Positions 1 to 52,262 of a stretch of DNA of 64,000 bases are shown here, piece after piece; position 1 is the stretch's first letter; every line of letters starts with the position of its first letter. Both the position numbers and the translations under genes were made by a program. The notes under the pieces were generated by a model. The model was given only the letters and a program-made list of their open reading frames with translations, did not search any database and had not been told where the DNA came from. Where the stretch lies: contig JBAZUH010000001.1 of NCBI GenBank assembly GCA_041661545.1, positions 339,877 through 403,876 of the forward strand, given 5' to 3'. This DNA comes from Candidatus Staskawiczbacteria bacterium. Its GTDB lineage: Bacteria > Patescibacteriota > Minisyncoccia > Minisyncoccales > Staskawiczbacteraceae.

Positions 1-3000
1 AGTTGCAGAGTTGGCCACATCTTCTTCTGTTGCCACGGCATAAAAACTTGCTGGAGCACTTTGGTTATTATATTCTGTAGCAATCCAATCAGCCGACCGA
101 GCAATAGAAGAAACGCGAATTTCATCAATCCCACCATAATAAGGAGAGGTGCCATCTCCTCTTGCACCAATTTTTACACTACCAACTCCTCCATATGCAG
201 TTACTGCTGTTGATTGTCCAATACTCGCACCATCAACATACCCAATATATTTTGCTGCTGAGACACTCCATACCATAGTTAAGTGATGCCAATTATTATC
301 ATTGATTGTTGCGATATTCCCCAACATAACACTTCTCATCCAAAAAATACCTTGGGCCCCGCCAACATTTGATACAATAAACCAATCTGAGGCATAAGGA
401 CTTACTGCATGACTTTGAGAGACAGCATAACTTGTTCCATTTTGTTTCACCCAAACAGAAGCTGAAAAATCTGAACCACTCAAATTTAAAGTAAGAGATG
501 TAATGTCTGCATAACTAATCCCATTAAAACTACCTGACCCATCCACCTTTCCTAATGTTGCAGTCACTCCATGGTTTGTTCCGTCGTTGTTATTGCTAGT
601 AGAATCAGTAGGATTTGTTGGATCACTTAAATGCCACACTCCTTTGAAATTGTTATCTCCTCCATCATCCCAAACCTTTTGAGCGCCATAAGTAGAATCA
701 GCATCGGGTTCTGTTGCGCCAGAATTTCCATAATACATATAGATATCTGTATCTACAGATGTAGAAAGTACTGGCACTTTAACCCATGCCACTAATGTTC
801 CATCGGCGTATGATTCTACCTCTCTTGCAAGCTCTGTTGTGCCATCGGAAGATGTAAATCTAATATCTGTTCCATTTGTATTTATGTTTGAAAGCCCTGT
901 GAGAGAAACTAAAACTGGAAAGTTTGTTTGATTGGTATTTGGAACTTTTGTTTTATCTATTGTAATCTTTTTTCTGTATGTCCAGCTGTTGTTGTACCAA
1001 TCTAAGGCTGTGATATTAGAAAGAGGGGTAAAACTAACTGTTACTTGCCCATCTCCTCTTTCTACACCAGTGATAGTTGGTTTTCCAGGAACTGTTCTTG
1101 GTGTACTGCTTGTTGGTGGGTCACTTGACGCGCCTGTTCCAGCTGAGTTATATGCAAATACTCTAAAATCATAGGAAGAACCATTTACAAGGTCTACAAC
1201 AGAAATTGTTGTAAGTGGCGATACAGGGTGGCCAAACTGTGTCCAAGTTTCATCAACACTAAGTTTATATTCAATAACATAATTAGTAATTTCTGCACCA
1301 TTATTGGCGGGAGCAGTCCAAGATAAATCAACCTGAGCATTTCCTGGAGTAGCAATAACTTCTGTTGGAATTCCCGGAACTCCTGCTGGCGTTACAGCCT
1401 CAGATGCATCTGAAGTTGGCCCCTGCCCCACTACATTTGTGGCAGTCATTGTAAATGTATATTCTGTTCCGTTTGTTAAACCAGAAACAATAATTGGTGA
1501 GGTACTATTTGAAACTACCACTGAATCTGGATTTGAGGTAACTGTATAATTTGTAATTTCACTTCCGCCATTGGTTGCAGAATTGGCAACATCTTCTTCT
1601 GTTGCCACGGCATAAAAACTAGACGGGTCACTTTGATTGTTGTATTCTGTAGCAATCCAATCAGCAGAGCGAGCAACATCAGAAACGCGATTTTCATCAA
1701 TACCGCCAATCCAATATCTAGCTCCAAGCTGCCCGTCCCAACCTATCATAAATTTTTCCCACAAAACTGATGAAATATTTCCCATTCTTGGGGATATGAC
1801 TCCAGAGAGCGAGCCATTTATATAAAAAGTTACGTTACTACCATTATAAGTATAGGCCACATGACTCCACTGATTGAGAGGAACCGTATCGGTAGAAGCA
1901 TGATAACCAGGGGGTATTGTTCCATAATGATATGTTTGTATTTTTTGATTATCTGTTCTTTGAAAATAATACTCGGATCTCTTAGTAGCAATAGTACCAT
2001 ATGCAACATTTGCTGTAGGATAAATCCATGCCGATTGCGTTATTGTTTCTCCACCAATACTAAGACTCTCGTTGCTTCCCACGTCAAAATACTGACTTCC
2101 ATTATAGGTAGTGGAATATCCTATTTTACCTAGAGCGCCAAAAACAACTGTTCCCAACTGAGTACCAGTGTTTGCATTTAAAGTAGAATCATAAACATAG
2201 GTTGGACCAGCTTCTGACATATGCCACACCCCAGCAAAATTATTACTTCCTCCATCGTCCCAAACTTTTTGGGAGCCGTAAGTAGAATCAACAGCAGGTT
2301 CTGTTGCGCCAGAATTTCCATAATACATATAGATGTCTGTATCAACAGATGTAGAGAGCACTGGTATCTTAACCCATGCTACTAGTGTGCCCGCAGAATA
2401 TGATTCTATCTCTCGTGCAAGCTCTGTTGTGCCATCAGAAGAAGTAAACCTAACATCTGTTGCATTTGCATTTATGTTTGATAATCCGGCTAAAGACACT
2501 AAAACTGGAAAGTTTGTTTGATTGGTATTTGGAACTTTTGTTTTATCTATTGTAATCTTTTTTCTGTAGGTCCAGCTGTTGTTGTACCATGGTGCAGTAG
2601 TAGGATTAGAGAGTAGATCAAAATTAACTGTCACTTGTGTGTCGCCAGCAACAGCGCTGGTGATAGTTGGTTCCCCGGGGATTGTTTTGGGAGTGCTACT
2701 AACAAGCGGTGAACTTGAGCTTCCGCTACCAACAGCATTTACTGCTGTAATTCTAAAATCATAAGAAGTGCCATTAACCAAACCCGTAACAAGAGTATCA
2801 ACTATTGTTGCAGTTTCGGGGTCAGCAGAAATTTGCCAGCTTGCCGGTTCATCTGGGTCACTTGTTAATTTATATTCAATTACATAATCTGTAATTGCAC
2901 TGCCACCATTTGAAGCTGGTGCAGACCAAAAAAGAGAAACTTGCCTGTCTCCATATGTTGGGGTTACCGCTGTTGGTTGTCCTGGAACAGTTGCTGGCGT

Positions 3001-5724
3001 TACAGAACTAGAAGGGTCAGAAGAAGGACCTGTTCCAACAACATTTGTTGCTGTTACAGTAAATGTATATTCTGTTCCGTTTGTTAAACCTGCAACTATA
3101 ATTGGTGAAGATAATCCATTTGCAGTAATTCCTTCTGGGTCAGAAGTAACAGCATAATTTGTAATTTCACTTCCACCGTTGGATCCAGAATTGTCCACAT
3201 CTTCTTCGCTTGCCACGGCATAAAAACTAGCTGGGTCTCTTTGATTATTATATTCTGTAGCAATCCAATCTGTAGAGCGAGCTGAAGCAGATATACGAGT
3301 TTCATCTATACGTCCATTATAATAACCCACGTACCCCCACCCAATATACGAATTTAAACTTGAAGCAACTGCAGCAGCATATGGAGCCGCCTTTACAGTT
3401 ACTGGCACTCCATTTATATACCATATCATTTGCATAGTTGTAAGATTTCTCACTATAACAATATGATTCCAGATATTCAACGCCATTACACCCGACAAAT
3501 GAGATGTATATGGAGACGCATTGCCTCCAGCAGTACCATAATAATAGCTGGCAACACCGTTTGTTTCCTGTGTTATTGTTCCTTCTCCTCCGTAGGCCTT
3601 TGCATATGGATTTCTTCTTACAGAAAAATCATATGGATATACCCACATCTCTATAGTTTGGCTCCCAGTGATTTGTAAAGAAGCAGGATTGAGCAAATTT
3701 ATATAATTATTACTCCCATTAAATACCGCAGCCCCATTCATCTGGCCCGCTATGGCTGTTGGAGGATTTGCCGAGAGAGATCCATTGTTAGCGTTACTAG
3801 TAGAATCTACCGCGGTCATTGTCGAAGCATCACCCATATGCCATACCCCTTTAAAATTATCATCTCCCCCATCATCCCAAACTTTTTGCGAGCCGTAAGT
3901 AGAATCAACAGCTGGTTCTGTTGCACTAGAATTTCCATAATACATATAGATATCTGTATCTACAGACGTAGATAGCACGGGTACCTTAACCCACGCTACT
4001 AGGGTGCCCGCAGAATATGATTCTATTTCTCTTGCAAGCTCTGTTGTGCCATCGGAAGATGTAAATCTAATATCTGTTCCATTTGTATTTATGTTTGAAA
4101 GCCCTGTTAAAGACACTAAAACTGGAAAGTTTGTTTGATTGGTATTTGGAACTTTTGTTTTATCTATTGTAATCTTTTTTCTGTATGTCCAGCTGTTGTT
4201 GTACCATAGTGTAGGAGTAGGATCGTATAGCAAATTAAAATTAATCGTCGCCTGCGTGTCACCAGCAACAGCACTAGTGATAGTAGGTTTCCCGGGAATG
4301 GTTTTGGGGGTTGCTGATGCTGTTGCGCTTGCATCTCCCTGACCAGCACTATTTCTTGCTGACACCCTAAAATCATAAAACAAACCATTTATAAGCCCTA
4401 TTACATCTCCATAAGTATTTGTAGATTCTCCATCAGCAAAAGTTGTCCACTCTACGTCTGTAGTAAGCTTGTAATCAATAACATAATCTGTAATTACAGC
4501 TCCTCCATTGTTTAATGGTGCTGTCCACGACAAGCCAACCTGCGCATTTCCATAAGTTGCAATTAAGTCAGTTGGCGCATCTGGCACCGCAGCTGTTTCC
4601 TCAGCAGAAGATGCAAAATTAGTAAAAGTTGCAGGAGAACTTTGATTATTATATTCAGTTTTTATCCAATCAGCGGAACGTTTAATATTTGAAACCCTTA
4701 ACTCATCAATTACTCCATCAAATGGATATCCGATACCATCTCTACCGTCATTACCTATATAATAATTATTTCCACCATCTCCTATTGTAAAATGTGTAAT
4801 TGCTGTGCCATCTGGATTTCCATTTAAATAAAAAGTTGCCAATTTAGTTGCATTATCAAATGTCACTAAAACATGAGACCATTGATCCGTTGCTACAGCA
4901 GTCTGCCCACTATAAACATATGAACCTGTTGCAGACCAAAAAGATGCCTTCCCGGCATTTAATGTAAACCACCAACCTGATGCAAAATTATTTCCAATAA
5001 TTCCGTCGTAATTAACTTTAGTAATTGGCTTAACCCACGCACTAAATGTTCCATCTGACCCTGTTAATTTCAAACCAGCATTTGCACCAGTAACTAGAGC
5101 ATAACTTAGGTAATTAAAATTCTGTCCAGTATTTATTTGTCCAACTGCTTCAATTGGATCATTCGCCCCTCTTTTATTCGCGTTGTTTAAATAAGAAGTA
5201 CTGTCACTAATAGTAGAAGTGGTAATATCTTTCAAGTGCCACACCCCTTTAAAATTATTACTACCTCCATCATCCCATGTTCCACCAACATTCCATTGAT
5301 CAGCAACTAATGCATTGCCGTAATAAATATAAATATCCGTATCAACAGAAGTGAAAACTGATGGAACTTCTACCCATGCAACCAATTCACCAGTAGAAGG
5401 AACATATTTTTCTACCTCATGATCCAATTTAACACCACCAGTAGTTGTAAAAACAATGTCTCCTCCATCTGCTTGACCAACATGACCACCATTAGCAGAA
5501 TCTTTTAGTGTTACCATTGTGGCACTAATGAGCACTGGAAAATATGCTTGATCAGTATTTTGAACTTTGGTATGATCAATTGTAATTTTTTTTCTATAAA
5601 TCCAATCTGTGTTATACCAAGAATCTACTGCTCTTGCATAATTGATTTGGAAACAAAAAATAACTATAAAAGAAAAAAGAACAGCAAAAGCAACAAAAAT
5701 TCTTATAAATTTATTTTTCTTCAT
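1..5724 (-). CDS. Giant modular secreted/surface protein (N-terminus in window, C-terminus beyond position 1): four tandem modules of DUF2341-like + LamG/concanavalin-A-like lectin + fibronectin type III
   Basis: ATG is the cat at 5722-5724. The reverse translation starts MKKNKFIRIFVAFAVLFSFIVIF (signal/anchor) and stays open for 1908 codons in the frame registered on nt 1-3. It is absent from the ORF track because it has no in-window stop. Recurring motifs: WYNNSWTYRKKITIDKTKVPNTNQTNFPVLV, DIRFTSSDGTTELAREIESY, VAWVKVPVLSTSVDTDIYMYYGN, FKGVWH, ARSADWIATEYNNQ, GGSEITNYVIEYK. Confidence 0.85.
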   Translation of the reverse strand, partial: MKKNKFIRIFVAFAVLFSFIVIFCFQINYARAVDSWYNTDWIYRKKITIDHTKVQNTDQAYFPVLISATMVTLKDSANGGHVGQADGGDIVFTTTGGVKLDHEVEKYVPSTGELVAWVEVPSVFTSVDTDIYIYYGNALVADQWNVGGTWDDGGSNNFKGVWHLKDITTSTISDSTSYLNNANKRGANDPIEAVGQINTGQNFNYLSYALVTGANAGLKLTGSDGTFSAWVKPITKVNYDGIIGNNFASGWWFTLNAGKASFWSATGSYVYSGQTAVATDQWSHVLVTFDNATKLATFYLNGNPDGTAITHFTIGDGGNNYYIGNDGRDGIGYPFDGVIDELRVSNIKRSADWIKTEYNNQSSPATFTNFASSAEETAAVPDAPTDLIATYGNAQVGLSWTAPLNNGGAVITDYVIDYKLTTDVEWTTFADGESTNTYGDVIGLINGLFYDFRVSARNSAGQGDASATASATPKTIPGKPTITSAVAGDTQATINFNLLYDPTPTLWYNNSWTYRKKITIDKTKVPNTNQTNFPVLVSLTGLSNINTNGTDIRFTSSDGTTELAREIESYSAGTLVAWVKVPVLSTSVDTDIYMYYGNSSATEPAVDSTYGSQKVWDDGGDDNFKGVWHMGDASTMTAVDSTSNANNGSLSANPPTAIAGQMNGAAVFNGSNNYINLLNPASLQITGSQTIEMWVYPYDFSVRRNPYAKAYGGEGTITQETNGVASYYYGTAGGNASPYTSHLSGVMALNIWNHIVIVRNLTTMQMIWYINGVPVTVKAAPYAAAVASSLNSYIGWGYVGYYNGRIDETRISASARSTDWIATEYNNQRDPASFYAVASEEDVDNSGSNGGSEITNYAVTSDPEGITANGLSSPIIVAGLTNGTEYTFTVTATNVVGTGPSSDPSSSVTPATVPGQPTAVTPTYGDRQVSLFWSAPASNGGSAITDYVIEYKLTSDPDEPASWQISADPETATIVDTLVTGLVNGTSYDFRITAVNAVGSGSSSSPLVSSTPKTIPGEPTITSAVAGDTQVTVNFDLLSNPTTAPWYNNSWTYRKKITIDKTKVPNTNQTNFPVLVSLAGLSNINANATDVRFTSSDGTTELAREIESYSAGTLVAWVKIPVLSTSVDTDIYMYYGNSGATEPAVDSTYGSQKVWDDGGSNNFAGVWHMSEAGPTYVYDSTLNANTGTQLGTVVFGALGKIGYSTTYNGSQYFDVGSNESLSIGGETITQSAWIYPTANVAYGTIATKRSEYYFQRTDNQKIQTYHYGTIPPGYHASTDTVPLNQWSHVAYTYNGSNVTFYINGSLSGVISPRMGNISSVLWEKFMIGWDGQLGARYWIGGIDENRVSDVARSADWIATEYNNQSDPSSFYAVATEEDVANSATNGGSEITNYTVTSNPDSVVVSNSTSPIIVSGLTNGTEYTFTMTATNVVGQGPTSDASEAVTPAGVPGIPTEVIATPGNAQVDLSWTAPANNGAEITNYVIEYKLSVDETWTQFGHPVSPLTTISVVDLVNGSSYDFRVFAYNSAGTGASSDPPTSSTPRTVPGKPTITGVERGDGQVTVSFTPLSNITALDWYNNSWTYRKKITIDKTKVPNTNQTNFPVLVSLTGLSNINTNGTDIRFTSSDGTTELAREVESYADGTLVAWVKVPVLSTSVDTDIYMYYGNSGATEPDADSTYGAQKVWDDGGDNNFKGVWHLSDPTNPTDSTSNNNDGTNHGVTATLGKVDGSGSFNGISYADITSLTLNLSGSDFSASVWVKQNGTSYAVSQSHAVSPYASDWFIVSNVGGAQGIFWMRSVMLGNIATINDNNWHHLTMVWSVSAAKYIGYVDGASIGQSTAVTAYGGVGSVKIGARGDGTSPYYGGIDEIRVSSIARSADWIATEYNNQSAPASFYAVATEEDVANSAT

Positions 5725-14721: not shown

Positions 14722-17247
14722 ATGGAAATTTACGTAACAAAAAGAGACGGCTCAAAAGAAATTTTTGATGCTAACAGAATTAACAAATCTATTGAAAGAG
14801 CTTGTTTTGGATTAGATGATCCTATAAGCAAGGTTGTACAAATTGCTTCAGAAACTCAACTAATGCTTTACAACGGAATAACAACCGAAGAACTAGATTT
14901 TGCAACAATAAATTCTGCTCTACAAAATATTCAAGAAGATACTTCTTATGACAAAGTAGCCACTCGCCTACTTTTAAAAACTGTATATAAAAGAATTTTC
15001 GGGGATTATGGGGAAAATAACAATATTCTTGAAGAAAAATATAAAAAATATTTTGTAGAACACATAAAAAATAATGTTGAGTTGCAAATTTTAGACAAAA
15101 GAATGATAGAGAAGTTTAATTTAGAAGAATTATCAAATTCGCTAAATATTAAAAAAGATGAACTTTTTAAGTACGCAGGCGCGTCAACTCTATTTAATAG
15201 ATATTCAATAAAAGATAGCGAACAAAAACCAATTGAAACTCCCCAGTATTTTTTTATGAGAGTTGCTATGGGCCTTTCATATAACGAAGACAACCCAACC
15301 AAATGGGCTATAGAATTTTATAATAAAATGTCTAACTTAGAATATATAGCCGGAGGGTCTACTAATATTGGAGCTGGAACAACAAGACCAGCTTTATCAA
15401 ATTGTTTTTTATTAGAAATTCAAGATGATATAGAGAATATAGCAAAATCAGTTTCTGATGTAATCAAAATATCTAAATCAACCGGAGGAATTGGGGCCTC
15501 TATTACTAAACTAAGAGCTAGTGGCTCTCCTTTGTCTTCTAACAACACCACCTCATCTGGGCCAACTCCTTTTGCAAAAATCATAGATACTGCTATTAGA
15601 GCTATACAAAGAGGTGGCAAGAAAAAAGGAGCTTTATGTTTTTATATGGAAAATTGGCACATTGATTTTCCAGATTTTTTAATGTGGAAACATAACGCCG
15701 GAGATGATTATCTAAGAATGCGCACTGCCGATACTGCTGTGTTTATATCAGACGAATTTATGAAGCGAGTTAAAAATAAAGACAACTGGTATATGTTTGA
15801 CCCAAAAGAAACTCCCGACTTAAACGAATTATATGGAAAAGCATTTTCAAAAAGATATGTAGAATATATAGAAATGGCTGAAGCTGGAAAATTAAGGGTT
15901 TTTTCAAAAGCACCAGCAGAAGAACAATATAGACAAATTCTTGTAATGCTTCAAGCAACATCACACCCTTGGCTCACATTTAAAGATCCTATTAATGTAA
16001 GGGCTTTAAATAACAATACAGGAACCATTCATATGTCTAACCTTTGCACCGAAATATGCTTGCCCCAAGACAAAGATAATATTGCTGTATGCAATTTAGC
16101 ATCAATAAATATTTCAGCCCACATAGAAAATGCAAAGGTAAACTGGAAAAAATTAGAACAAACAGTAAGGCTATCTGTAAGACAATTAGACAATTTAATA
16201 GATATAAACTTACTACCTATACCAGAAGCTGTAAAATCTGACATAGAAAATAGGGCTATTGGATTGGGAGTTATGGGTTTTTCTGAAGCAGTAGAATTGC
16301 TTAAACTAGGCTATGAAGATGAAGAAACTTTTGAATTAGCTGATAAAATATTTGAATTTATAAGTTATTTTGCCATAGATGAAAGCGCAAATTTGGCTAC
16401 AGCTAGAGGCAGTTATAAAAATTTTCCTGGTTCTGGTTGGTCAAAAGGAAAAGTTCCTTTTGATACAATATCTGATTTAGAAAATGAAAGAGGAGAAAAA
16501 TTAGAATTAGACAAAACAAGCCATGCTACAGAATTAGGATTAGATTGGCAAGAACTAAGAAGAAAAGTTCAAAAAGGAATGAGAAACGCCACTCTTATGG
16601 CTGTAGCGCCCAATGCAAACATTGGATTATTAGCAGGCACTACTCCGGGAATTGACCCTAGGTTTGCCCAAGTATTTTCAAGAAATAAAATATCCGGAAA
16701 ATATTTAGACATAAACCATAATTTAGTTAAAGAATTAAAAGAAATTAAAATATGGGACGAAGTTAAAAAAGAAATTATAGAAAAACAAGGAGATATTTTA
16801 GATATCGAAAAAATACCAGAAAATATCAAAAAAAGATACAAATCTGCTTTTACAACCTCGCCCTATGCTTTTATAGAAATTGCCGCCCGTGCCCAAAAAT
16901 GGGTTGACCAAGCATTATCGCGTAATATGTATTTAGAAACAAGAATTACCGAAGAAATTATGGATATTTATTCAAATGCATGGAAAAAAGGACTAAAAAC
17001 TACTTATTACTTACATATGAAACCTAGGCACACAGCCGAGCAAAGCACTGTGTCTATAAATAAAAGAGAGAAAATGGGAAGAGTAGGTTTTTCCGCCTTC
17101 GCTACGGCTTCCGCCGACGCTAAAGCTTTGGCGGACAAGGGCTCTGTTGAAGATGAGGCTGAATATGAAGCTATCATGGCTAAAGTTTCTGCTACTCGTG
17201 GGCCAGAAGACCCACAAGAAAAGTTTTTATGCGACAGTTGTCAGTAA
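14722..17247 (+). CDS. nrdA: Ribonucleoside-diphosphate reductase alpha subunit (class Ia, ATP-cone)
   Basis: ATP-cone at the N-terminus (YVTKRDGSKEIFDANRINKSIERAC), active-site NLCTEI, and a C-terminal CDSC tail. Confidence 0.9.
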   Translation: MEIYVTKRDGSKEIFDANRINKSIERACFGLDDPISKVVQIASETQLMLYNGITTEELDFATINSALQNIQEDTSYDKVATRLLLKTVYKRIFGDYGENNNILEEKYKKYFVEHIKNNVELQILDKRMIEKFNLEELSNSLNIKKDELFKYAGASTLFNRYSIKDSEQKPIETPQYFFMRVAMGLSYNEDNPTKWAIEFYNKMSNLEYIAGGSTNIGAGTTRPALSNCFLLEIQDDIENIAKSVSDVIKISKSTGGIGASITKLRASGSPLSSNNTTSSGPTPFAKIIDTAIRAIQRGGKKKGALCFYMENWHIDFPDFLMWKHNAGDDYLRMRTADTAVFISDEFMKRVKNKDNWYMFDPKETPDLNELYGKAFSKRYVEYIEMAEAGKLRVFSKAPAEEQYRQILVMLQATSHPWLTFKDPINVRALNNNTGTIHMSNLCTEICLPQDKDNIAVCNLASINISAHIENAKVNWKKLEQTVRLSVRQLDNLIDINLLPIPEAVKSDIENRAIGLGVMGFSEAVELLKLGYEDEETFELADKIFEFISYFAIDESANLATARGSYKNFPGSGWSKGKVPFDTISDLENERGEKLELDKTSHATELGLDWQELRRKVQKGMRNATLMAVAPNANIGLLAGTTPGIDPRFAQVFSRNKISGKYLDINHNLVKELKEIKIWDEVKKEIIEKQGDILDIEKIPENIKKRYKSAFTTSPYAFIEIAARAQKWVDQALSRNMYLETRITEEIMDIYSNAWKKGLKTTYYLHMKPRHTAEQSTVSINKREKMGRVGFSAFATASADAKALADKGSVEDEAEYEAIMAKVSATRGPEDPQEKFLCDSCQ

Positions 17248-17269: not shown

Positions 17270-18295
17270 ATGCCACTAATAGGAAAAGCCTCACCAAAAG
17301 ATTATAATATTCATCCTTCTATATACCCTTGGGCCAGAGAATTATATGACCAAGCTATAGCAAACACATGGTACCCCCACGAAATACCATTAAAAGAAGA
17401 TCTAGAAGATTGGGCAACCATGACCGACGACGAAAAATATGCGGTAGAATTTGTAATGTCTTTTTTTAATCCAGCTGAATTAATAGTAAACAGAGTTTTG
17501 GCTTTAGGGGTTTATCCTTATTTAAAATCAGCTGAATGTCATTTATATTTAGCCAAACAAATGTGGGAAGAAGCAAATCATTGCGTGGCCTTTGAATATG
17601 TTTTAGAAACTTTACCAATAGATAGAACAAAAGTTTATGAAGCTCATATGGTTACTCAATCTATGAAAGATAAAGAAGATTATATAAATGATTATGTAAG
17701 CCGTATGACAGAAGATACTTATGACGTTACCACAGTAGAAGGTAAAAAAGATTTTATAAGAAATCTTGTAGCCTATAATATAGTTATGGAAGGAGTTTGG
17801 TTTTATTCTGGATTTATGGTTATGTTATCTTTTAGACAAAGAAATAAATTAAGAAATTTAGGATCTATGATTAATTGGGTTTTAAGAGACGAAAGCTTAC
17901 ATTTAAAATTTGGGATTAATTTAGTTTTAACTTTATTAGAAGAAAACCCAGAAATAGTATCTGCCGAATTTGCAGAAGAAATAAAAAATATAATTATTAA
18001 AGGTGTTGATTTAGAAACTCAATATAATAAAGATTTATTCCCCCGGGGCATTTTAGGATTAAACGCAGATTATGTAAACCAATATGTGCAATATGTAGCC
18101 GACAGAAGAATGGAAGAATTAGGATTTTCTCCACATTATAATGTTACTAATCCGGCTAAATGGATGACAACTGCTACAGATGTTTACGAATTAGTAAATT
18201 TCTTTGAGTCTCAAAATACAAACTACGAAGTGAATTCTAAATCTTATAACCTGCCTGACCGGCAGGCAGGTACCGAAAAACCAAAAGAATCATAA
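17270..18295 (+). CDS. nrdB: Ribonucleoside-diphosphate reductase beta subunit
   Basis: Di-iron ligand segments WEEANHCVAFEYV and RDESLHLKFG. Lies 22 nt after nrdA. Confidence 0.9.
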   Translation: MPLIGKASPKDYNIHPSIYPWARELYDQAIANTWYPHEIPLKEDLEDWATMTDDEKYAVEFVMSFFNPAELIVNRVLALGVYPYLKSAECHLYLAKQMWEEANHCVAFEYVLETLPIDRTKVYEAHMVTQSMKDKEDYINDYVSRMTEDTYDVTTVEGKKDFIRNLVAYNIVMEGVWFYSGFMVMLSFRQRNKLRNLGSMINWVLRDESLHLKFGINLVLTLLEENPEIVSAEFAEEIKNIIIKGVDLETQYNKDLFPRGILGLNADYVNQYVQYVADRRMEELGFSPHYNVTNPAKWMTTATDVYELVNFFESQNTNYEVNSKSYNLPDRQAGTEKPKES

Positions 18296-18296
18296 T

Positions 18297-18325
18297 CAAA
18301 AAACACTCCTCAGGAGTGTTTTTTG
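18297..18325. terminator. Bidirectional intrinsic terminator between nrdB and tgt
   Basis: aaaaaacactcctcaggagtgttttttg: an 8-bp stem flanked by an A-run and a T-run. Confidence 0.75.
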
Positions 18326-18327
18326 AT

Positions 18328-19524
18328 TTAGATTTCGCCTTTTTTTATTTTTTCGCGTATATTTTCTACAAAAGTATTGAAATAATATAAGTTGTGGAAA
18401 GTTAAAAGCTTCATGCCGGTTATTTCGCCTGCTTTTAACAAATGGCAAATATAATCTTTTTTATAATTCAAACAAACATCACAAACACAACCTTTATCTA
18501 AAGGCTCATTTTTATTTAAAAACTTTGTTTGTTTTAAATTTAATTTTCCTTGAGAAGTAAAAGCAATCCCTCGTCTTGCATAATGCGTTGGAACAGTACA
18601 ATCAAAAGTATCGGCACCAGATTTTATAATTGACTCCATATCTTCTAAATAACCTACTCCTAAAAGATGCCTTGGTTTTTTTTCTGGCAATTCGTCTACC
18701 ACCCAGCCTATCATTTCTCCCATTTTCTTTTTATCATTTCCAAATTCTCCGCCAATTCCAAATCCATCAAAGTCCATAGCACCAATTGTTTTGGCGCTTT
18801 CAATTCTTAAATCTTTAAATTTAGACCCCTGAACAATTCCATACAAAGCTTGCTTGGATTTTTTAGCTTTCAAGCAAATTTCTGCCCATTTATGAGTTTT
18901 TTCTAAAGATTTTTTAACATAATCATATTCTGCTAAGGGAGCTGTGCATTCATCAAAAGCAAAAATAATATCTGCCCCTATTTTCTCCTGTATTTTAATA
19001 GATTCTTTGGGGCCAATAAATAATTCATCTCCATTTATTGGCGAACGAAAAATTACCCCGTCGTTATTTATTTTTATTTGCTTTGGCTGTGTACCTGCAC
19101 TAATTGAGCGAGGCAATAAATTTTTTTGAGACGAATGGGCACCGTCAGCAGACGGGTTGAGACGAGAAAAAATTTGATTGCCGAGCGCTAATTTACTACC
19201 CAATCCGTAGTCTGTACCAAAGCCCAAAGAAAAAACCTGATAGCCACCGGAATCTGTCATTAGGGGCTTTTTCCAATTCATAAATTTATGAATTTTACCG
19301 GCTTTTTCTACAATTTTCTCGCCCGGTTTTAAATGTAAATGAAATGTATTAGAAATTAAAATTTGTGATTTTGTTGCTTCTACTTCTTTGCTTTCTAAGG
19401 TTTTTATAACTGCTTGTGTTGCAACCGGAACTAAACACGGCGTTTCAACAACACCGTGCTCTGTTTCTAAAAATCCCAACCTCGCCCTGCTTTTATTAGA
19501 TTTTTTTAATATCTTAAAATTCAT
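18328..19524 (-). CDS. tgt: tRNA-guanine transglycosylase (queuine tRNA-ribosyltransferase) carrying an internal repeat-derived insertion
   Basis: TPCLVPVATQAVIKT, TDSGGYQVFSLG, FAFDECT, and Zn-site CVCDVC...H. There is an extra ~45 aa between GGYQVFSLG and VIFRSPINGD. Confidence 0.9.
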   Translation of the reverse strand: MNFKILKKSNKSRARLGFLETEHGVVETPCLVPVATQAVIKTLESKEVEATKSQILISNTFHLHLKPGEKIVEKAGKIHKFMNWKKPLMTDSGGYQVFSLGFGTDYGLGSKLALGNQIFSRLNPSADGAHSSQKNLLPRSISAGTQPKQIKINNDGVIFRSPINGDELFIGPKESIKIQEKIGADIIFAFDECTAPLAEYDYVKKSLEKTHKWAEICLKAKKSKQALYGIVQGSKFKDLRIESAKTIGAMDFDGFGIGGEFGNDKKKMGEMIGWVVDELPEKKPRHLLGVGYLEDMESIIKSGADTFDCTVPTHYARRGIAFTSQGKLNLKQTKFLNKNEPLDKGCVCDVCLNYKKDYICHLLKAGEITGMKLLTFHNLYYFNTFVENIREKIKKGEI

Positions 19525-19529
19525 TTAAA

Positions 19530-19619
19530 TTATTTATATGATGGAACTAATATTAAGATGCCAATTAAAATTACCATTATTAATCCTAAAACACCTAATA
19601 ACCAAATTTCTTTTTTCAT
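19530..19619 (-). CDS. Possible 29-aa single-TM micropeptide
   Basis: MKKEIWLLGVLGLIMVILIGILILVPSYK; below the ORF-track size cutoff. Sits immediately upstream of tgt on the same strand. Confidence 0.3.
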   Translation of the reverse strand: MKKEIWLLGVLGLIMVILIGILILVPSYK

Positions 19620-19774
19620 AAAATATAATCCGAATGTCATCCAAATAAATCCGAATGCCACGAATTAAATTCATCGTATTCGAAACATTAGAATGATTCG
19701 TAGATTTGTATTGTCTAGATTTATATTACCTGTTAAATGAAAAATATCAAAGGCCTGCCTGCCGGCAGGCAGGC

Positions 19775-19803
19775 TTGACATAGACTCATAAACAAAGTAT
19801 AAT
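19775..19803 (+). promoter_or_regulatory. Consensus sigma-70-type promoter (TTGACA-N17-TATAAT)
   Basis: TTGACA at 19775-19780, a 17-nt spacer, and TATAAT at 19798-19803. The 22-nt palindrome gcctgcctgccggcaggcaggc abuts it directly on the upstream side. Confidence 0.6.
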
Positions 19804-19895
19804 AAAAATAACTAACAAGTCGCAAAACGACCTGCTAGGAATTAAAAAGGTCGTTTTACTATTTATTAGGCACGCGCCTATAAAAGAAACAAAAA

Positions 19896-20075
19896 ATGTT
19901 CGACAGAAACAATAATAATGGAGGTTTTGTCAAAAGAGAGCCTGTTAAAGGAAACTGGAAATGCTCCGAATGCGGAGTAGAAATTACAGAGCTTCCTTTT
20001 GAACCAGCTCCCGACAGACCAATCTATTGCAGAGAATGCTGGTCTAAAAAAAGACCTCCAAGATTCAGCAGATAA
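19896..20075 (+). CDS. Small zinc-ribbon protein (59 aa)
   Basis: MFDRNNNNGGFVKREPVKGNWKCSECGVEITELPFEPAPDRPIYCRECWSKKRPPRFSR. One residue below the ORF-track cutoff. Followed by a terminator at about 20086-20115. Confidence 0.6.
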   Translation: MFDRNNNNGGFVKREPVKGNWKCSECGVEITELPFEPAPDRPIYCRECWSKKRPPRFSR

Positions 20076-20176
20076 TTGAATCGAAAATAATCCCCTTCTT
20101 GGGGGTTATTTTTTTATAAAAAATTTGTATAATTTTTTAATAGTGATACAATAAAAAAAAATAAAGTAAAAAAATA

Positions 20177-20602
20177 ATGAACAAAGAAAAAAAAGATCTT
20201 CTAAAAAAAATACAAAATACTTATTGTAGGTTAAGAGCATCTAAAATAGAAGGCGTAGGAATTTTTGCTATAAGAGATATTCCAAAAGGAATAAATCCAT
20301 TTTACGGAGTAAGAAAAGAAAAATGGATTAAATTTAATAAATCAGAAATAGAAAATTTAGACGAATCTATATTAGAAATGGTTAATAGCTTTTTTGTTGT
20401 TAATAAAGATGGGTCTGTTTACATGTCTGATTGCGGTCTTCATGGGATGAATGTATCTTATTTTTTAAATCATTCTAAAAAACCTAATGTTACAACAAAT
20501 AAAAATGGCGAAAATTTTATTACCTTAAGAAAAATCAAAAAGGGTGAAGAATTGTCAGTTTCATATTCAATTTACGCCCATAATGAAAAATATAAAATTT
20601 AA
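20177..20602 (+). CDS. SET-domain protein (putative protein-lysine methyltransferase)
   Basis: GVGIFAIRDIPKGINPF, NHSKKPNV, and KIKKGEELSVSY. Confidence 0.75.
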   Translation: MNKEKKDLLKKIQNTYCRLRASKIEGVGIFAIRDIPKGINPFYGVRKEKWIKFNKSEIENLDESILEMVNSFFVVNKDGSVYMSDCGLHGMNVSYFLNHSKKPNVTTNKNGENFITLRKIKKGEELSVSYSIYAHNEKYKI

Positions 20603-20604
20603 CT

Positions 20605-21972
20605 ATGAGCAACGAAAATGGTAATGGTAACGGCCATATCAATGGAAACGGAAAAAATAATTTACCAGATGCAAAGGTTTTACCTGAAAAAATAATTAGA
20701 AAATTTTTATTTGTAAGCTGGGAAAGCTTATCAGGAGATTTAGCATGGCAAATTAAAAGAGAGGGCCACGAAGTTAAAATTTATATAAAATCAGAAAAAG
20801 ATAAAGACGTTTACGATGGTTTTTTAGATAAAGTAGATGATTGGAAAAAATATATTGATTGGGCAGATGTTATTGTTTTTGATGATGTGGGATTTGGCCC
20901 AACTGCCGACGAATTAAGAAAATCCGGCAAATTAATTGTTGGCGGATCAGCTTATACAGATAAACTAGAAGAAAATAGAGAATTTGGTCAAGCAGAAATG
21001 AAAAGAGTTGGAATGCTAACGCTTCCCCACTGGGATTTTTCTGATTATGAAACAGCCCTAAAATTTATTGAAGAAAATCCAGGAAGATATGTTTATAAAC
21101 CTTCTGGATTTACCGGCTCTGATGTAAAAGGGCTTTTATTTATTGGCAAAGATGAAGACGGAAAAGATTTGCATGAAATAATAAGATCAAACAAAAAAGT
21201 ATTACAACAACGGGTTAAACAATTCCAACTTCAAAAATTTGCCTCGGGCGTTGAAATAGCAGTTGGTGCATTTTTTAATGGAAACGATTTTATTTATCCG
21301 CTACATGTTAATTTTGAACATAAAAAATTATTTCCAGGAGATATTGGGCCATTTACAGGAGAAATGGGAACTTTAGGTTATTTTTCTGGACCAAATACAA
21401 TATTTAGAACCACTTTAGAAAAAATGCGGGAAGATATAAAAAAATCAGGTTACGTAGGATATGTTGATATAAATTGTATTGCTAACGCCCGAGGAATATA
21501 CCCCCTGGAATTTACCTGTAGGTTTGGATACCCAACAATATCTTTACAAATAGAAGCAATTACTAGCGAATGGGGCGAATTCTTATATAAAATTGCTAAA
21601 GGAGAAAATTACGATTTAAAAACAAAAAAGGGCTTTCAAATATGCGTGGTATGCTCGGTTCCACCATTTCCCTATAATGATAAAGATGAAATGGCCATAT
21701 ATAAAGACCTTTCAATTATTTTTAAAAAACCTAATTTAGACGGCGTGCGTCTTGGAGATGTAAAATTAGTTGATGGAAGCTGGCAAATAGCTGGAGAAAC
21801 CGGCTACTCATTAATAGTAACTGGCGCTGGCACAACCGTAGAAGATGCTAGAAAGCAAGTTTACAGCAGAATAGAAAATATATTGTTACAAAATATGTTT
21901 TATAGAACAGACATAGGAATGGGCTGGAATGAAGATTCTGATAAATTACAAACCTGGGGATATCTTTATTAA
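20605..21972 (+). CDS. ATP-grasp enzyme, PurD (phosphoribosylamine-glycine ligase)-like
   Basis: 455 aa with PurD-like layout (KFLFVSWESLSGDLAWQIKREGHEV, YVYKPSG, and an ATP-grasp core). Starts 3 nt after the SET gene. Confidence 0.6.
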   Translation: MSNENGNGNGHINGNGKNNLPDAKVLPEKIIRKFLFVSWESLSGDLAWQIKREGHEVKIYIKSEKDKDVYDGFLDKVDDWKKYIDWADVIVFDDVGFGPTADELRKSGKLIVGGSAYTDKLEENREFGQAEMKRVGMLTLPHWDFSDYETALKFIEENPGRYVYKPSGFTGSDVKGLLFIGKDEDGKDLHEIIRSNKKVLQQRVKQFQLQKFASGVEIAVGAFFNGNDFIYPLHVNFEHKKLFPGDIGPFTGEMGTLGYFSGPNTIFRTTLEKMREDIKKSGYVGYVDINCIANARGIYPLEFTCRFGYPTISLQIEAITSEWGEFLYKIAKGENYDLKTKKGFQICVVCSVPPFPYNDKDEMAIYKDLSIIFKKPNLDGVRLGDVKLVDGSWQIAGETGYSLIVTGAGTTVEDARKQVYSRIENILLQNMFYRTDIGMGWNEDSDKLQTWGYLY

Positions 21973-21989
21973 CTCGTTTATAAAAAAAC

Positions 21990-22018
21990 AAAAACCCCAA
22001 TATTGGGGTTTTTGTTTT
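21990..22018. terminator. Bidirectional intrinsic terminator
   Basis: aaaaaccccaatattggggtttttg. Confidence 0.7.
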
Positions 22019-22024
22019 GTATTT

Positions 22025-22225
22025 TTAGTTTCTACCTAACTTTGGAAAAACTACTACCAAATAAATTGCTGACAATCCTACCAATACATATACAATATTG
22101 GTTAAAGCTGATCCCTCTCCTAAAAGCATCGTAACCAAGTTCCAACCAAATGCTACCAACAACCAATTTAACCCTCCTACAATTACCAATACTAATGCTA
22201 CTAAATCTAAAGTATTAAATTTCAT
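22025..22225 (-). CDS. DUF378-family small membrane protein
   Basis: LVALVLVIVGGLNWLLVAFGWNLV is typical of DUF378. Confidence 0.7.
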   Translation of the reverse strand: MKFNTLDLVALVLVIVGGLNWLLVAFGWNLVTMLLGEGSALTNIVYVLVGLSAIYLVVVFPKLGRN

Positions 22226-22328
22226 GATTATATTTCGATTTTATAAATTAATTTTAAAATCGACCTTTAGTGCCAACAAATGGCTCTTAATATATTATAC
22301 CACAAAAAATAACGTCAAGTCTTGTAGC

Positions 22329-22826
22329 TCATTCTATAAATAAACTTGCTGTATCACCCACTTTTAATTTTATATTTTCTGCTATGCCCGCGTTAACCTC
22401 TAAAACATACTTAGCTTTTGCTAGCGAGCCAACTGTTGGACATATTAAAACTTTTACCTGCCTGCCGGCAGGCAGGCAGGGCTGAACATTATTAGCAATA
22501 AAAATTATTTTTCTATTTTCGTTTATCCAAATTATATCTAATGGTATTAAAGTATTTTTCATCCAAAAAGGATAAACGCCTTCTTTTTCAAAAATAAAAA
22601 GCATACCCTTGTCTGCATCTAGTTGGTTTCTGTTCATTAGACCTTTTGCTCTTTCTGATTCTGTTTTAGCAATTTCTACAGAAAAACAATTCTCTTTAAA
22701 ACATACTTTGTTGTTTATACTTTGCAAGGTTCCTGGAGACAATAAAATATTAGCTGAATTAAAAAAGATAAAAATTATAATAATAATTATAACTATTAAA
22801 AAAAATATTTCTAATATCATTTTCAT
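22329..22826 (-). CDS. DUF192-domain protein
   Basis: GLMNRNQLDADKGMLFIF and FWMKNTLIPLDIIWI. Contains an in-frame cctgcctgccggcaggcagg palindrome encoding CLPAGRQV. Confidence 0.75.
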   Translation of the reverse strand: MKMILEIFFLIVIIIIIIFIFFNSANILLSPGTLQSINNKVCFKENCFSVEIAKTESERAKGLMNRNQLDADKGMLFIFEKEGVYPFWMKNTLIPLDIIWINENRKIIFIANNVQPCLPAGRQVKVLICPTVGSLAKAKYVLEVNAGIAENIKLKVGDTASLFIE

Positions 22827-27564: not shown

Positions 27565-27623
27565 GTGTCCTATCCCGCCACAGCGGGACCCCGCTTAGGC
27601 GGGGCCATTAGACGACCTCGCAA
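27565..27623 (-). pseudogene. Duplicated 5' fragment of tRNA-Gln with a 32-nt double-hairpin insert in the D-loop
   Basis: Reverse strand: TTGCGAGGTCGTCTAATGG[ccccgcctaagcggggtcccgctgtggcggga]TAGGACAC. The TCGTCTAATGG...TAGGACAC part is identical to the D-arm of the intact tRNA-Gln. Confidence 0.6.
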
Positions 27624-36238: not shown

Positions 36239-36367
36239 AGCGAGGCAGTGAATTCGTAGCGTACCCTGCAGGCAATTTTGCTTGGTCCCGCGAAGCGGGA
36301 AAATTGCCGAAGCCTGAGTGAGCCCGCGCTGGCGGGCGAACGCTAGCGAAGAATCACTGGCGAGCGA
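36239..36367. repeat. G+C-rich structured intergenic repeat, copy E2 (between atpG and atpD)
   Basis: Near-identical core to E1. Differences are paired: ggcaAtgaattc/gaatcaTtgcc in E1 versus ggcaGtgaattc/gaatcaCtggc in E2, and ttgcgcgctggcgcaa versus cccgcgctggcggg. Confidence 0.8.
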
Positions 36368-42277: not shown

Positions 42278-42571
42278 TCCGGTGTAGCTCAATGGTAGAG
42301 CAACTCCCTGTCAATTAGGCAGCCTTCTGCAGGAATGCAGAATGAAAAATGAGGTGAAATCGGGGAAACCCTTTTGGGGCAATCCCGAGCCAAGCCCATT
42401 TTAAAAATGGGAAGGTGTAGAGACTATCCTTTACGGAGTACTAAAAATATAAAATTATATTTTTGGGAAGCGCCTCGCGCCCAGAACGGGCGATGATATA
42501 GTCCACCCCTAAAAGTAATTTTAGGACAATGTGTAAGGAGTGGGTTCTTGGTTCGAGTCCAGGCACCGGAG
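42278..42571 (+). tRNA. tRNA-Asn (anticodon GUU) interrupted by a group I intron in the anticodon loop
   Basis: Exon 1 is TCCGGTGTAGCTCAATGGTAGAGCAACTCCCTGT (ends 42311). Exon 2 is TAAGGAGTGGGTTCTTGGTTCGAGTCCAGGCACCGGAG (starts 42534). The ligated anticodon loop is CUGUUAA, with U1-A72 and G73 as in bacterial tRNA-Asn. Confidence 0.8.
42312..42533 (+). ncRNA. Group I intron (IC3-like), 222 nt, no ORF
   Basis: P1 pairs ctgt|c with ggcag, giving U-G at the splice site. The core gaaatcggggaaaccc...cccgagccaagc...gaaggtgtagagactat closely matches my recollection of the Azoarcus/cyanobacterial tRNA introns (GCCGAGCCAAGC...GAAGGUGUAGAGACUA). The intron ends in G. Confidence 0.8.
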
Positions 42572-47481: not shown

Positions 47482-48225
47482 ATGAAAAAAATATACTTAA
47501 TTATTATATTAATAATTATTGTGGTTTTAGGTATTTATATAAACCGCAGTTATGCTTATATTTATAATAAAACAAGCCAAGATAATTTGCTAAGCCCAGA
47601 TAAAAGCCAAACATATATAATAGAATCTATGAAAAATGATAAAGATTTAATTTATGTAGCCGTGGGCGACAGTTTAACTGCCGGCGTAGGAGTTGATAAT
47701 TACAAAGAATCATACCCATATTTATTGTCAGAAAAAATGTCTGGAGAGGGCAATATAATTTTAAAAAATAGATCTATTCCTGGCTTTACAACAGGCAATC
47801 TTAAAAATGAACTACTATCATTGGCTATTTTAGATAAACCAAATATTGTTACCTTATTAATTGGAGTTAATGATATTCACAATCAAATTTCTAAAAAAGA
47901 TTTTGAAGAAAATTATGATGAAATTTTAAAAGAACTTACTACAAAAACCACTGCTAAAATTTATTTAATAAATATTCCTTATATTGGTTCTAGCAAACTA
48001 ATTCTACCCCCTTATAATTTATATTTTGACTTTGAAACTAAACAATTTAACAAAATTATTGAAAATTTAGCACAAAAATATAATTTAACATACATAAACT
48101 TATATTCTGCGTCTAAAACAGAATTTGAAAAATCTGATTCATATTATGCAAAAGACTTGTTTCACCCATCGGCCAAGGGTTATGCTATGTGGGCCAATAT
48201 AATATTCGCAAACATATATAAATAA
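47482..48225 (+). CDS. SGNH/GDSL hydrolase
   Basis: VAVGDSLTAG, GVNDI, and DLFHPS blocks. Confidence 0.8.
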   Translation: MKKIYLIIILIIIVVLGIYINRSYAYIYNKTSQDNLLSPDKSQTYIIESMKNDKDLIYVAVGDSLTAGVGVDNYKESYPYLLSEKMSGEGNIILKNRSIPGFTTGNLKNELLSLAILDKPNIVTLLIGVNDIHNQISKKDFEENYDEILKELTTKTTAKIYLINIPYIGSSKLILPPYNLYFDFETKQFNKIIENLAQKYNLTYINLYSASKTEFEKSDSYYAKDLFHPSAKGYAMWANIIFANIYK

Positions 48226-48226
48226 A

Positions 48227-49336
48227 ATGATAATTTCAATAAATAACGCATTTGAAGCTACAATAATCTTTAATATTATTTTGGGCATAATTTTGCTTTT
48301 ATCTTTGCGTAAAAAAAACGACAAAGGAATTTTTCCTATTTCGCTAAGTCAAGAATTAAAGGGCATTGCAATTTTGCTTGTTGTATTTTCTCATGTGGGG
48401 TATTTCTTGGTTACAGATAACAGATTTTTATTTCCCTTGTCGGATTTAGCTGGCGTAGGAGTTGATTTATTTTTGTTTCTTTCTGGGTTAGGGCTAACTG
48501 CTAGTGCTTTTAAAAATAAACTACCAATATTAAATTTTTATCATAAACATTTCTTAAAATTATTTACCCCTCTTTGGCTAACTTTAATTGGCCTTTTAAC
48601 ATTAGATTTTTTTGTTTTAAAAATAACTTATTCTTGGCAATTTATTGCAAAATCCTTTTTGGGAATTTTTACTACGGCCGACATATATAAAGACATAGAT
48701 TCTCCATTATGGTATTTTACTTTAATATTATTTTATTATCTTGTTTTTCCAATTTTCTTTTCTAAAAAAAGGCCGTGGTTGTCAGCCATTATAATTTATG
48801 CTGTTAGTTATATAATTTTATACTTAAACATACCAGCTATATATAACGTATCGTTTTTCCACGAAAAACATATTATAGCCTTTCCTTTGGGCATGATAAT
48901 TTCTTGGATTTTTTACCAGCTAGCAGATAAAAATAAAATAAATATAAATAAATATGCATCTATAATTGGACGTTATACATTAATAGCTATGCTAATAGCA
49001 TTTATTTTTTATTCCCACTCTTATTTTAGACAACTAACCAACCCAGACCAAATTCAATTTGCTAGTATTGCCACAGTATTGGCCATTATTATTATATTTA
49101 TGGCAAAAAAGTTTGAATTTAAATTATTAAGCTTAATTGGTGTATACTCTTACGAAATTTATCTTTTGCACTGGCCAATTATGTATAGATATGATTTTAT
49201 TTATCAATATTTGCCCGCTTGGTTGGCTACGCTAATTTATATTCCAGTTTTAATAACTATTGCCTGGCTATTTAAAAAACTTGTTGATTTAATTTTAAAT
49301 AGAAAAAAACCATCTAAAAATGAGATGAAGGATTGA
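48227..49336 (+). CDS. Acyltransferase family 3 (membrane O-acyltransferase)
   Basis: LKGIAILLVVFSHVG, in a polytopic protein. Confidence 0.75.
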   Translation: MIISINNAFEATIIFNIILGIILLLSLRKKNDKGIFPISLSQELKGIAILLVVFSHVGYFLVTDNRFLFPLSDLAGVGVDLFLFLSGLGLTASAFKNKLPILNFYHKHFLKLFTPLWLTLIGLLTLDFFVLKITYSWQFIAKSFLGIFTTADIYKDIDSPLWYFTLILFYYLVFPIFFSKKRPWLSAIIIYAVSYIILYLNIPAIYNVSFFHEKHIIAFPLGMIISWIFYQLADKNKININKYASIIGRYTLIAMLIAFIFYSHSYFRQLTNPDQIQFASIATVLAIIIIFMAKKFEFKLLSLIGVYSYEIYLLHWPIMYRYDFIYQYLPAWLATLIYIPVLITIAWLFKKLVDLILNRKKPSKNEMKD

Positions 49337-49446
49337 CTTTTTCATTTTTTTGGGTAAACTCTAGATAAGTACTTTGACAAGAGGAAATCGCTTTGCCGAG
49401 TGGCAAACGCGTATTTTGACTTATTGTCAGGGTAACCCACAAACCA

Positions 49447-50763: not shown

Positions 50764-50789
50764 CCACGCTCGCTGCTCAACAAACCCAA

Positions 50790-50825
50790 GCCTGGGGAAC
50801 ACGATGTTCCCTGGGCACTTTTTTT
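50790..50825 (+). terminator. Strong intrinsic terminator of island D
   Basis: gcctggggaaca-cga-tgttccctgggc forms a 12-bp stem including G-U pairs, followed by ac and ttttttt. Confidence 0.75.
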
Positions 50826-50870
50826 ACATAAATATGCAATATAAATATAAAATGTTATAATTCTAATATT

Positions 50871-52229: not shown

Positions 52230-52235
52230 AGCCCA

Positions 52236-52262
52236 CCAAAAAAACCGCCTCATCGGCGGTTT
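52236..52262. terminator. Hairpin terminator shared by the Pif1 gene and island E
   Basis: aaaaaaaccgcctcatcggcggtt. The A-run gives a T-run on the minus strand. Confidence 0.55.

Follow-up and report, generated by a model that had tools for sequence, protein, structure and literature searches.

The SDR repeats of Nostoc and relatives are the closest described kind to the element treated here; they are said to be 21-27 nt long in heterocyst-forming cyanobacteria, where they reportedly form hairpins, are embedded in heptameric tandem repeats, nest within themselves and are thought to be mobile. Rickettsia palindromic elements (RPE) are imperfect palindromes of 100-150 bp that are known only from Rickettsia and lie in frame in genes, and the GC clusters, double-hairpin and 'byp' elements of fungal mitochondria are short G+C-rich hairpin insertions in A+T-rich organellar genomes, the byp elements being bypassed by ribosomes. 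The SDR report (Elhai et al. 2008, Genome Res 18:1484) and the insertion of SDR5 in HIP1 are cited in passages of PMC3116915 (ref 43) and PMC4390886. This study concerns a 64-kb stretch (the window) from a genome of Candidatus Staskawiczbacteria, within the candidate phyla radiation (CPR), and a 20-mer, CCTGCCTGCCGGCAGGCAGG, named PAL here, that occurs at three sites in it; loci compared with the window carry labels beginning with L. PAL, at 20-22 bp, is probably an ultra-small palindromic insertion element that is non-coding and non-autonomous, and the results suggest that it is one of the smallest mobile DNA elements.

The three copies, with their host genes and the adjoining promoter, are as follows.

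17270-18295, plus strand: nrdB, class I ribonucleotide reductase small subunit (PF00268, E 2.9e-75), host of copy 1
18250-18270, no strand: 21-nt PAL variant in the nrdB tail, within an Asn codon (AA|C), encoding LPDRQAG
19753-19774, no strand: intergenic 22-nt perfect palindrome (exact PAL at 19754-19773), directly upstream of the cTTGACA -35 of the zf_Tbcl_2 gene promoter
19775-19803, plus strand: sigma-70-type promoter TTGACA-N17-TATAAT (12/12 match), which drives the zinc-ribbon gene at 19896-20075, is older than the insertion and lies outside the element
22329-22826, minus strand: DUF192 gene (PF02643, E 1e-33), host of copy 3
22437-22456, minus strand: putative +1-base stretch adjoining PAL downstream in DUF192, which would restore the frame (net +21 nt)
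22457-22476, no strand (host gene on minus): exact 20-nt PAL between bases 2 and 3 of a Cys codon (QPC|K), read as LPAGRQ

The preliminary description of this DNA had reported a perfect palindrome of 20-22 nt in three places. Three sites were indeed found and two of them hold the exact 20-mer (19754-19773 and 22457-22476), but the nrdB copy is a variant, CCTGCCTG-A-CCGGCAGGCAGG, in which one added A interrupts the palindrome. The contexts assigned to the copies were recovered from the gene calls: the nrdB tail NLPDRQAG, the 22-nt intergenic palindrome abutting a perfect TTGACA-N17-TATAAT promoter, and CLPAGRQV on the minus strand within the DUF192 gene. PAL had also been called G+C-only against a background of roughly 30% G+C; its composition is 80% G+C and that of the window 34%. 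The 8-mer CCTGCCTG occurs 7 times in the window, every one inside the three PAL sites, and shuffles of the window give expectations of 0.68 for this 8-mer and 0 for the 20-mer, in agreement with the earlier judgement that recurrence by chance is very unlikely. The copies span 4.2 kb (P = 0.0125 for three random points, a post hoc value), and no free PAL half-sites are present in the window. Their predicted RNA hairpins have energies of -16.7 (nrdB), -20.6 (intergenic) and -21.9 kcal/mol (DUF192), with z about -4. An extra CAGG at 22477-22480 belongs to the host Pro-Cys codons (CCC TGC, minus strand) and lies outside the element. A PAL-like string at 56175 was considered as a relic and rejected, as it encodes motif VI of a DEAD-box helicase (HRIGRTGRAG).

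Insertion of PAL was demonstrated by filled and empty alleles, whereas its movement is deduced from patterns and was not observed. The nrdB tail past ...YEVNxKA is hypervariable among 120 homologs. A 90%-identical homolog (L163/L164) carries the empty allele, TAC AAC|ACC GAT AAA CCA AAA GAG TAA, and the filled allele of the window reads AA[CCTGCCTGACCGGCAGGCAGG]T ACC. In L165-L170, with nrdB 92% identical, the 21-nt insert is kept with a decayed left arm (AAC ATG CCT ACC AAG CAG GCA GGC ACC). Because these loci carry the same insert in decayed form, the nrdB insertion predates the split between the lineages of the window and L165; after that split the insert decayed freely in one lineage.

The DUF192 site extends this comparison to a larger set of alleles. 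Most orthologs have 158 aa and read QPC-K; among the 120 best homologs, 108 lack an insert and 12 carry one at the same codon boundary, namely LPAGRQV, LPAGQAG, LPASWAG and LPAQAG (four times) plus decayed forms, and the filled homologs are scattered over a poorly resolved neighbour-joining tree. In the DNA of five filled alleles, the insert always splits the Cys codon after its second base (TG|Y AAA): the window has the 20-mer, L121 a 21-mer with an internal A, L124 and L126 have 18-mers with a CG or CA centre, and the L122 insert (CCCGCC...GGCGGG) has both arms altered complementarily. The window allele consists of the plain 20-mer and one added base ~10 nt downstream (AAAAGTTTTAATATG vs AAAAGTTTAATTTG in other alleles), and the protein has VKVLIC where others have KSLIC; downstream of PAL, the sequences are T AAAAGTTTTAATATGTCCA in the window, T AAAAGTTTAATTTGT in L121 and AAAAGTTTAATTTGTCCA in the empty allele L278. 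This putative compensating base is read from the alignment, and the L121 frame is restored another way, by the A inside the palindrome. Since the two frames are restored differently, independent insertions at the same point are the best explanation of the window and L121 alleles, as far as we infer. The window copy is young, because the closest syntenic relative (nrdB 92% identical) has an empty DUF192 gene of 158 aa. Among 76 more distant metagenomic DUF192 orthologs, one carries PAL and two carry inserts of unrelated sequence in this loop, which is evidently permissive. A metagenome pattern scan for a strain-level empty DUF192 allele gave no match and did not recover the source contig itself either.

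The intergenic copy lies between tgt (minus strand) and the zinc-ribbon gene (plus strand). Its promoter, cTTGACA-N17-TATAAT, and the downstream leader are kept in L165 and L122, where PAL is absent; PAL was therefore inserted just upstream of a pre-existing -35. The insert displaces the region just upstream of the -35, and it may affect this promoter incidentally. The comparison of nrdB and DUF192 orthologs and the search for target-site duplications had both been suggested in the preliminary description: the former found empty sites in relatives, so that these copies are insertions, and the latter found no duplication at nrdB or DUF192, the two sites with comparable filled and empty alleles. 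Both coding copies amount to net +21 nt and give LPxxRQ-type loops in variable regions. Combined, the three window copies appear to be separate insertion events of different ages, and a regulatory role is not needed to explain them.

The leader of the zf_Tbcl_2 gene is itself conserved (window 19806-19890; L165 4140-4225; L122 12230-12115, minus strand). It forms a hairpin aaacgacct...aggtcgttt and a second one, gggcgcgtgccc in L165 vs aggcacgcgcct in the window, with arms that differ in sequence between relatives and are still self-complementary, and it may be a cis-regulatory RNA. Additionally, L122, from a related Staskawiczbacteria genome, has a decayed PAL, ACCTGCCCTCTCGGCAGGCAGG, at 15365-15384 inside a SpoU methylase gene.

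Bacteria of at least 10 phyla, as well as viruses, carry PAL, and the sites are unrelated to one another. In a scan of one genome per GTDB species, the exact 20-mer was found in at least 120 species genomes (at least 120 stretches returned), with groups assigned from record titles. The groups named among the matches listed include CPR, Bacteroidota, Omnitrophota, the PVC group, Nitrospirota, Desulfobacterota, Bdellovibrionota, Elusimicrobia and Chloroflexi. The loci among these listed matches were distributed as follows.

CPR/Patescibacteria: about 36 loci
Bacteroidota, cultured isolates included: about 38 loci
"Gammaproteobacteria"/Pseudomonadota metagenome-assembled genomes: 12 loci
Omnitrophota: 10 loci
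Planctomycetota/PVC: 8 loci
Delta-type/Bdellovibrionota: 6 loci
Unclassified: 4 loci
Thermodesulfovibrionales: 3 loci
Ignavibacteria, Chloroflexi and Elusimicrobia: 1 locus each

Bacillota, Actinomycetota, Cyanobacteria and Archaea had none among the matches listed, an absence to be read with caution since the order of the scan may bear on it. The cultured Bacteroidota with PAL belong to Winogradskyella, Flagellimonas, Longitalea, Flavivirga, Aquiflexum, Agriterribacter and Aestuariivivens, with Winogradskyella echinorum KCTC 22026, Flagellimonas yonaguniensis and Longitalea luteola among the carriers, and experiments on the element are therefore possible. In IMG/VR, 35 viral stretches contain PAL, and two control palindromes of the same composition, GGCAGGCAGGCCTGCCTGCC with arms swapped and CCGTCCGTCCGGACGGACGG permuted, had 0 matches each. 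BLAST searches for exact PAL returned 0 matches in 50,697 cultured phage records, in 72,556 plasmids (PLSDB) and in 5,426 complete E. coli genomes (28 Gb). At about 160 unique PAL sites (22 nt including flanks) the flanks are unrelated from site to site. Centre variants also recur in unrelated viral contigs, namely CG (18-mer), ACCGG and CCGGA (21-mers) and no centre at all; the two 21-mer centres are those of the window nrdB copy and of L121. Close pairs of PAL, 33-3,571 nt apart, are present in L031, L036, L049, L104, L106, L128 and L134. No match to the PAL core sequence was found in the literature searched. The motif thus recurs far outside the window (at least 120 species genomes and 35 viral stretches, with unrelated flanks). 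The 'mobile or copy-pasted hairpin' of the preliminary description is supported both by this dispersal over phyla and by the absence of the three copies at matching sites in relatives.

The positions at which PAL lands are not random. In low-GC loci, with open reading frames (ORFs) of at least 150 codons counted as long, only 12 of 71 sites fall in long ORFs vs 79% of bases (p = 5e-29), a depletion that would be expected of a frameshifting insert. Coding copies are read through in frame, mostly as xLPAGRQx, and deleting the 20-mer shortens the ORFs; all six frames of PAL are free of stop codons, and the 18- and 21-nt variants are commoner in long ORFs than 20-mers. The GatB gene of L104 is ambiguous as a coding example, as the loop natively has GRQ in Thermotoga GatB. 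Splicing or ribosomal bypass was rejected: the ORFs read through PAL, and both window genes gain a net 21 nt. With PAL deleted from each site beforehand, tandem repeats of period 7-9 account for 2.75% of bases yet enclose 33 of 167 sites. Flanking inverted repeats of at least 6 nt were observed 16 times (2.9 expected), and flanking direct repeats of at least 5 nt 17 times (2.6 expected), the latter mostly reflecting the tandem repeats. Position -1 is a purine at 69% of sites and T at 9%, the usual insertion point being a purine|pyrimidine step, and a T-run or A-run lies alongside PAL at 17% of sites vs 21% of random positions.

Several sites lie within other structures. PAL is nested in PAL in L018, L021, L028, L042 and L150. 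A repeat-dense viral contig, IMGVR_UViG_3300037242_000417 (L148, L155, L156), has at least 6 PAL copies; one hairpin family in L148, CCCCATCCTTGC-GGTTTTT-GCAAGGGTGGG, has members that are empty, filled with PAL at the loop/stem junction or topped by an apex GTCCGCCGCGGCGGAC, and a second, GCCCC-GTAG-GGGC, has both empty and PAL-filled members. PAL interrupts the D-arm hairpin of tRNA-like 5' fragments at five sites. In the viral L152 (2175-2310), PAL forms an extra arm in the variable loop of an intact tRNA-Met(cat), which ARAGORN calls whether PAL is present (92 nt) or removed (72 nt); in L129 (8500-8660), a contig related to L152, the T-arm after PAL is deleted. A tRNA intron was rejected as an explanation, since removing PAL fails to restore most PAL-bearing tRNA-likes, which are 5' fragments beside intact tRNAs, L152 alone being intact. 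The preference for structured DNA is evident both statistically and in the L148 families, and this DNA is probably single-stranded.

No machinery linked to the element was apparent around it. An all-against-all ORF comparison around about 155 PAL loci found no shared protein family, the largest cluster being 8 related viral contigs, and Rfam 15 covariance models had no match at any PAL site. The window ORFs of at least 130 aa were identified; they include no transposase, reverse transcriptase, integrase or RAYT, and the window ORFs are ordinary CPR genes such as those for ATP synthase, RF, FtsEX, RNR, TGT, SOD, Fur and transketolase.

These patterns suggest how PAL might spread. The copying step would act on single-stranded, structured DNA. 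A sequence-specific factor could be supplied in trans, which would explain the presence of this exact 20-mer across phyla and the absence of the controls; alternatively, replication could switch template from an existing PAL copy, which would fit the local clustering (three in 4.2 kb, and close pairs elsewhere). A 20-nt insertion would shift the reading frame, and genic copies would therefore survive only in permissive loops or tails with a net length that is a multiple of three, reached through 18- or 21-nt variants or through a neighbouring +1 base. Template switching within a hairpin (quasi-palindrome correction), an established source of quasi-palindrome mutations, could keep the arms perfectly complementary without selection, and the complementary arm changes of L122 could have arisen in this way.

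De novo origin at each site, by CCTG/CAGG slippage combined with either fold-back or quasi-palindrome template switching and without any transfer, is unlikely, although it would account for arms that equal (CCTG)2 and (CAGG)2, for centre variants with 0 to 5 central bases, for the association with slippage-prone tandem repeats and for the DUF192 host codons CCC TGC, which lengthen the CCTG run. The exact 20-mer was found at upwards of 160 unrelated sites and neither the arm-swapped nor the permuted control at any, the empty sites AAC|ACC and TG|Y AAA have no CCTG seed, and the window lacks free half-sites. Selection for a functional RNA or DNA hairpin in place (a terminator, insulator, mRNA stabiliser or RNase site) appears quite improbable: hairpins of very high stability are predicted (-16.7 to -21.9 kcal/mol, z about -4), the intergenic copy on the minus strand fits the terminator pattern, arms are kept at synonymous positions in DUF192 alleles and those of L122 differ complementarily (CCCGCC...GGCGGG), but the share of sites with a T-run or A-run (17%) does not exceed that of random positions (21%), two window copies are genic, where termination would be harmful, relatives lack the copies, and Rfam matches no PAL site. 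The complementary changes can come from intra-hairpin template switching with no selection, and the L122 allele is also similar to a family of sibling palindromes.

The perfect dyad, the low copy number (one PAL per 70 kb or so of related CPR contigs), the clustering of three copies in the window, the promoter beside one of them and the conservation of the sequence across phyla would each be at home in an operator, a centromere-like site or another site recognised by a dimeric DNA-binding protein and maintained by selection wherever it occurs. Orthologous sites are nonetheless empty or decayed in close relatives, the neighbour genes differ from locus to locus, the left arm is lost in L165 with the gene unchanged, and PAL is found in pseudo-tRNA fragments, tandem repeats, hairpin apices and other PAL copies, so we give this explanation a low probability. 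The 'binding site for dimeric factor' of the preliminary description is accordingly unsupported, its orthologous positions not being conserved, an arm being lost in L165 and the promoter occurring without PAL. It is very improbable that PAL represents abutted terminal inverted repeats, or the excision footprint, of a larger transposon whose ends carry CCTGCCTGCC (CCTGCCTGCC...GGCAGGCAGG). Its form of two 10-bp inverted repeats placed head to head would agree with this, as would the two 80-nt PAL-containing inverted repeats that flank 1.35 kb in L148, but the window has no separated half-sites, no transposase is common to the loci, the defined sites show no target duplication, and in L148 the hairpin family into which PAL is inserted has empty members as well. 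An artefact of sequencing or assembly (adapter or linker) could put one identical sequence in many unrelated assemblies; this is barely credible given host sequence that is continuous on both sides with reading frames kept, diverged orthologous copies in independent data sets, PAL in isolate genomes and its absence from 28 Gb of E. coli assemblies, PLSDB and cultured phages.

Several points weigh against the insertion-element reading as well. No enzyme or intermediate was identified, so mobility is read from patterns only, and identity across phyla is difficult to account for unless a conserved sequence-specific factor exists or horizontal transfer is frequent. In 430 kb of related CPR contigs, picked solely for carrying DUF192, PAL-family sites number about 6 (~1 per 70 kb), unusually few for a selfish repeat. 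Recurrence at one DUF192 codon boundary may partly represent shared ancestry, as the tree of a 150-aa protein is poorly resolved, and the ORF excess of 18- and 21-nt (multiple-of-three) variants amounts to no more than a trend in the high-GC viral set (p = 0.10). The taxonomic range and counts from the GTDB-species scan are lower bounds and are possibly biased by scan order.

A more far-reaching version of the insertion-element reading can be put forward tentatively and is, on balance, doubtful: PAL would be the substrate of a sequence-specific system, protein or RNA-guided, that inserts it into single-stranded hairpin loops and is shared or transferred among CPR, Bacteroidota, PVC, Omnitrophota, others and viruses, making it the smallest cross-phylum mobile DNA and part of a wider class with TCCGCCAGCTGGCGGA, CCGATAGCTATCGG and GTCCGCCGCGGCGGAC. 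Two sibling mini-palindromes were seen in PAL loci, both with unrelated flanks: TCCGCCAGCTGGCGGA at 10 sites (L011, L015, L016, L032, two in L040, L108, L110, L291 and L295) and CCGATAGCTATCGG at 3 sites (L052, L062 and L070). One sibling (L040:4469) occupies the apex of a longer hairpin. Their presence in PAL loci suggests a wider class.

Movement of PAL, if real, would lower the size limit for mobile DNA that ranges across phyla and would point to a recombination or replication-linked activity that is aimed at hairpin loops and leaves no duplication; it would also bear on the spread of other very small repeats such as SDRs, single REPs and mitochondrial GC clusters. PAL gives proteins LPAGRQ-type peptides and tRNA genes extra arms, causes frameshifts followed by compensating changes, and marks recent strain-level insertions in streamlined CPR genomes.

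Other features of the window were noted in passing. The tgt gene (18328-19524, minus strand) encodes a TGT of 398 aa vs 380 aa in relatives (+18 aa); at 19093-19191 a 99-nt imperfect palindrome (predicted -23.9 kcal/mol), in frame and single-copy in the window, stands in place of ~45 nt, and this hairpin insert is closer to RPE in form than PAL is. A ~44-nt palindrome, AAAAAAGTCGCGTTTTTGACGGCCGTCAAAAACGCGACTTTTTT, has two intergenic copies 8 kb apart (53210-53253 and 61163-61216) and makes up a second family of small palindromic repeats, possibly bidirectional terminators. The intergenic G+C-rich hairpins at 27574-27610 (CCCGC-CACA-GCGGG then CCCCGC-TTAG-GCGGGG), 36320-36339 (GCCCGC-GCTG-GCGGGC) and 42469-42500 (CGCCC-AGAAC-GGGCG) are either terminators or other mini-palindromes. 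Positions 1-5700 have no listed ORFs and hold ~3.5 tandem copies of a 1.6-kb repeat at 40% G+C, probably part of a giant minus-strand gene for a repetitive surface protein, which continues past the window's left end. A higher-GC island at 48000-52300 (37-42% G+C), with a PIF1-like helicase (50871-52229) and overlapping ORFs (49374-50763), may be horizontally acquired.

Compared with known systems, PAL shares most with the SDRs as they are described: both are very small (PAL 20-22 nt, SDRs 21-27 nt) and hairpin-forming, PAL is also embedded in heptamer-type tandem repeats (33 of 167 sites), nested in itself and placed precisely in other palindromes and hairpins, and neither has an associated gene. 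Unlike the SDRs, PAL is perfectly palindromic and G+C-rich, occurs in few copies (~1 per 70 kb, 3 in the window) where they reach high copy number, is identical in at least 10 phyla and viruses where they are known from one cyanobacterial subgroup, and also lies in frame inside genes, where it is translated. Intrinsic terminators differ in that PAL sites show no T-run enrichment and two window copies are genic. The short conserved dyads of parS, operators and uptake sequences are comparable in form, parS also being few-copy and cross-phylum, but PAL positions are not conserved, decay, and sit in pseudo-tRNAs, repeats and each other.

Repetitive extragenic palindromes (REPs) and REPINs, which are linked to RAYT proteins (Y1 HUH transposases), resemble PAL as short (20-40 bp), non-autonomous hairpin palindromes without target duplication and in their presumed action on single-stranded DNA. 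PAL differs from them in having no GTAG or CGTC tag, its flanks showing only the purine preference at -1; in the lack of a RAYT gene among the window ORFs or common to the loci; and in being low-copy, not lineage-specific and also genic, with a single perfect hairpin as its unit. Miniature inverted-repeat and insertion sequence-derived elements are set apart by the internal segment and target-site duplication that PAL lacks (nrdB, DUF192), abutting direct repeats being found at only a minority of PAL sites and being due mostly to tandem repeats. RPE are likewise palindromic selfish DNA, in frame at permissive gene sites and adding a peptide loop, but PAL measures 20 bp. The mitochondrial GC clusters and byp elements are similar to PAL as G+C-rich hairpins scattered through an A+T-rich genome, coding regions included, with the difference that genic PAL is read through in frame and not bypassed.

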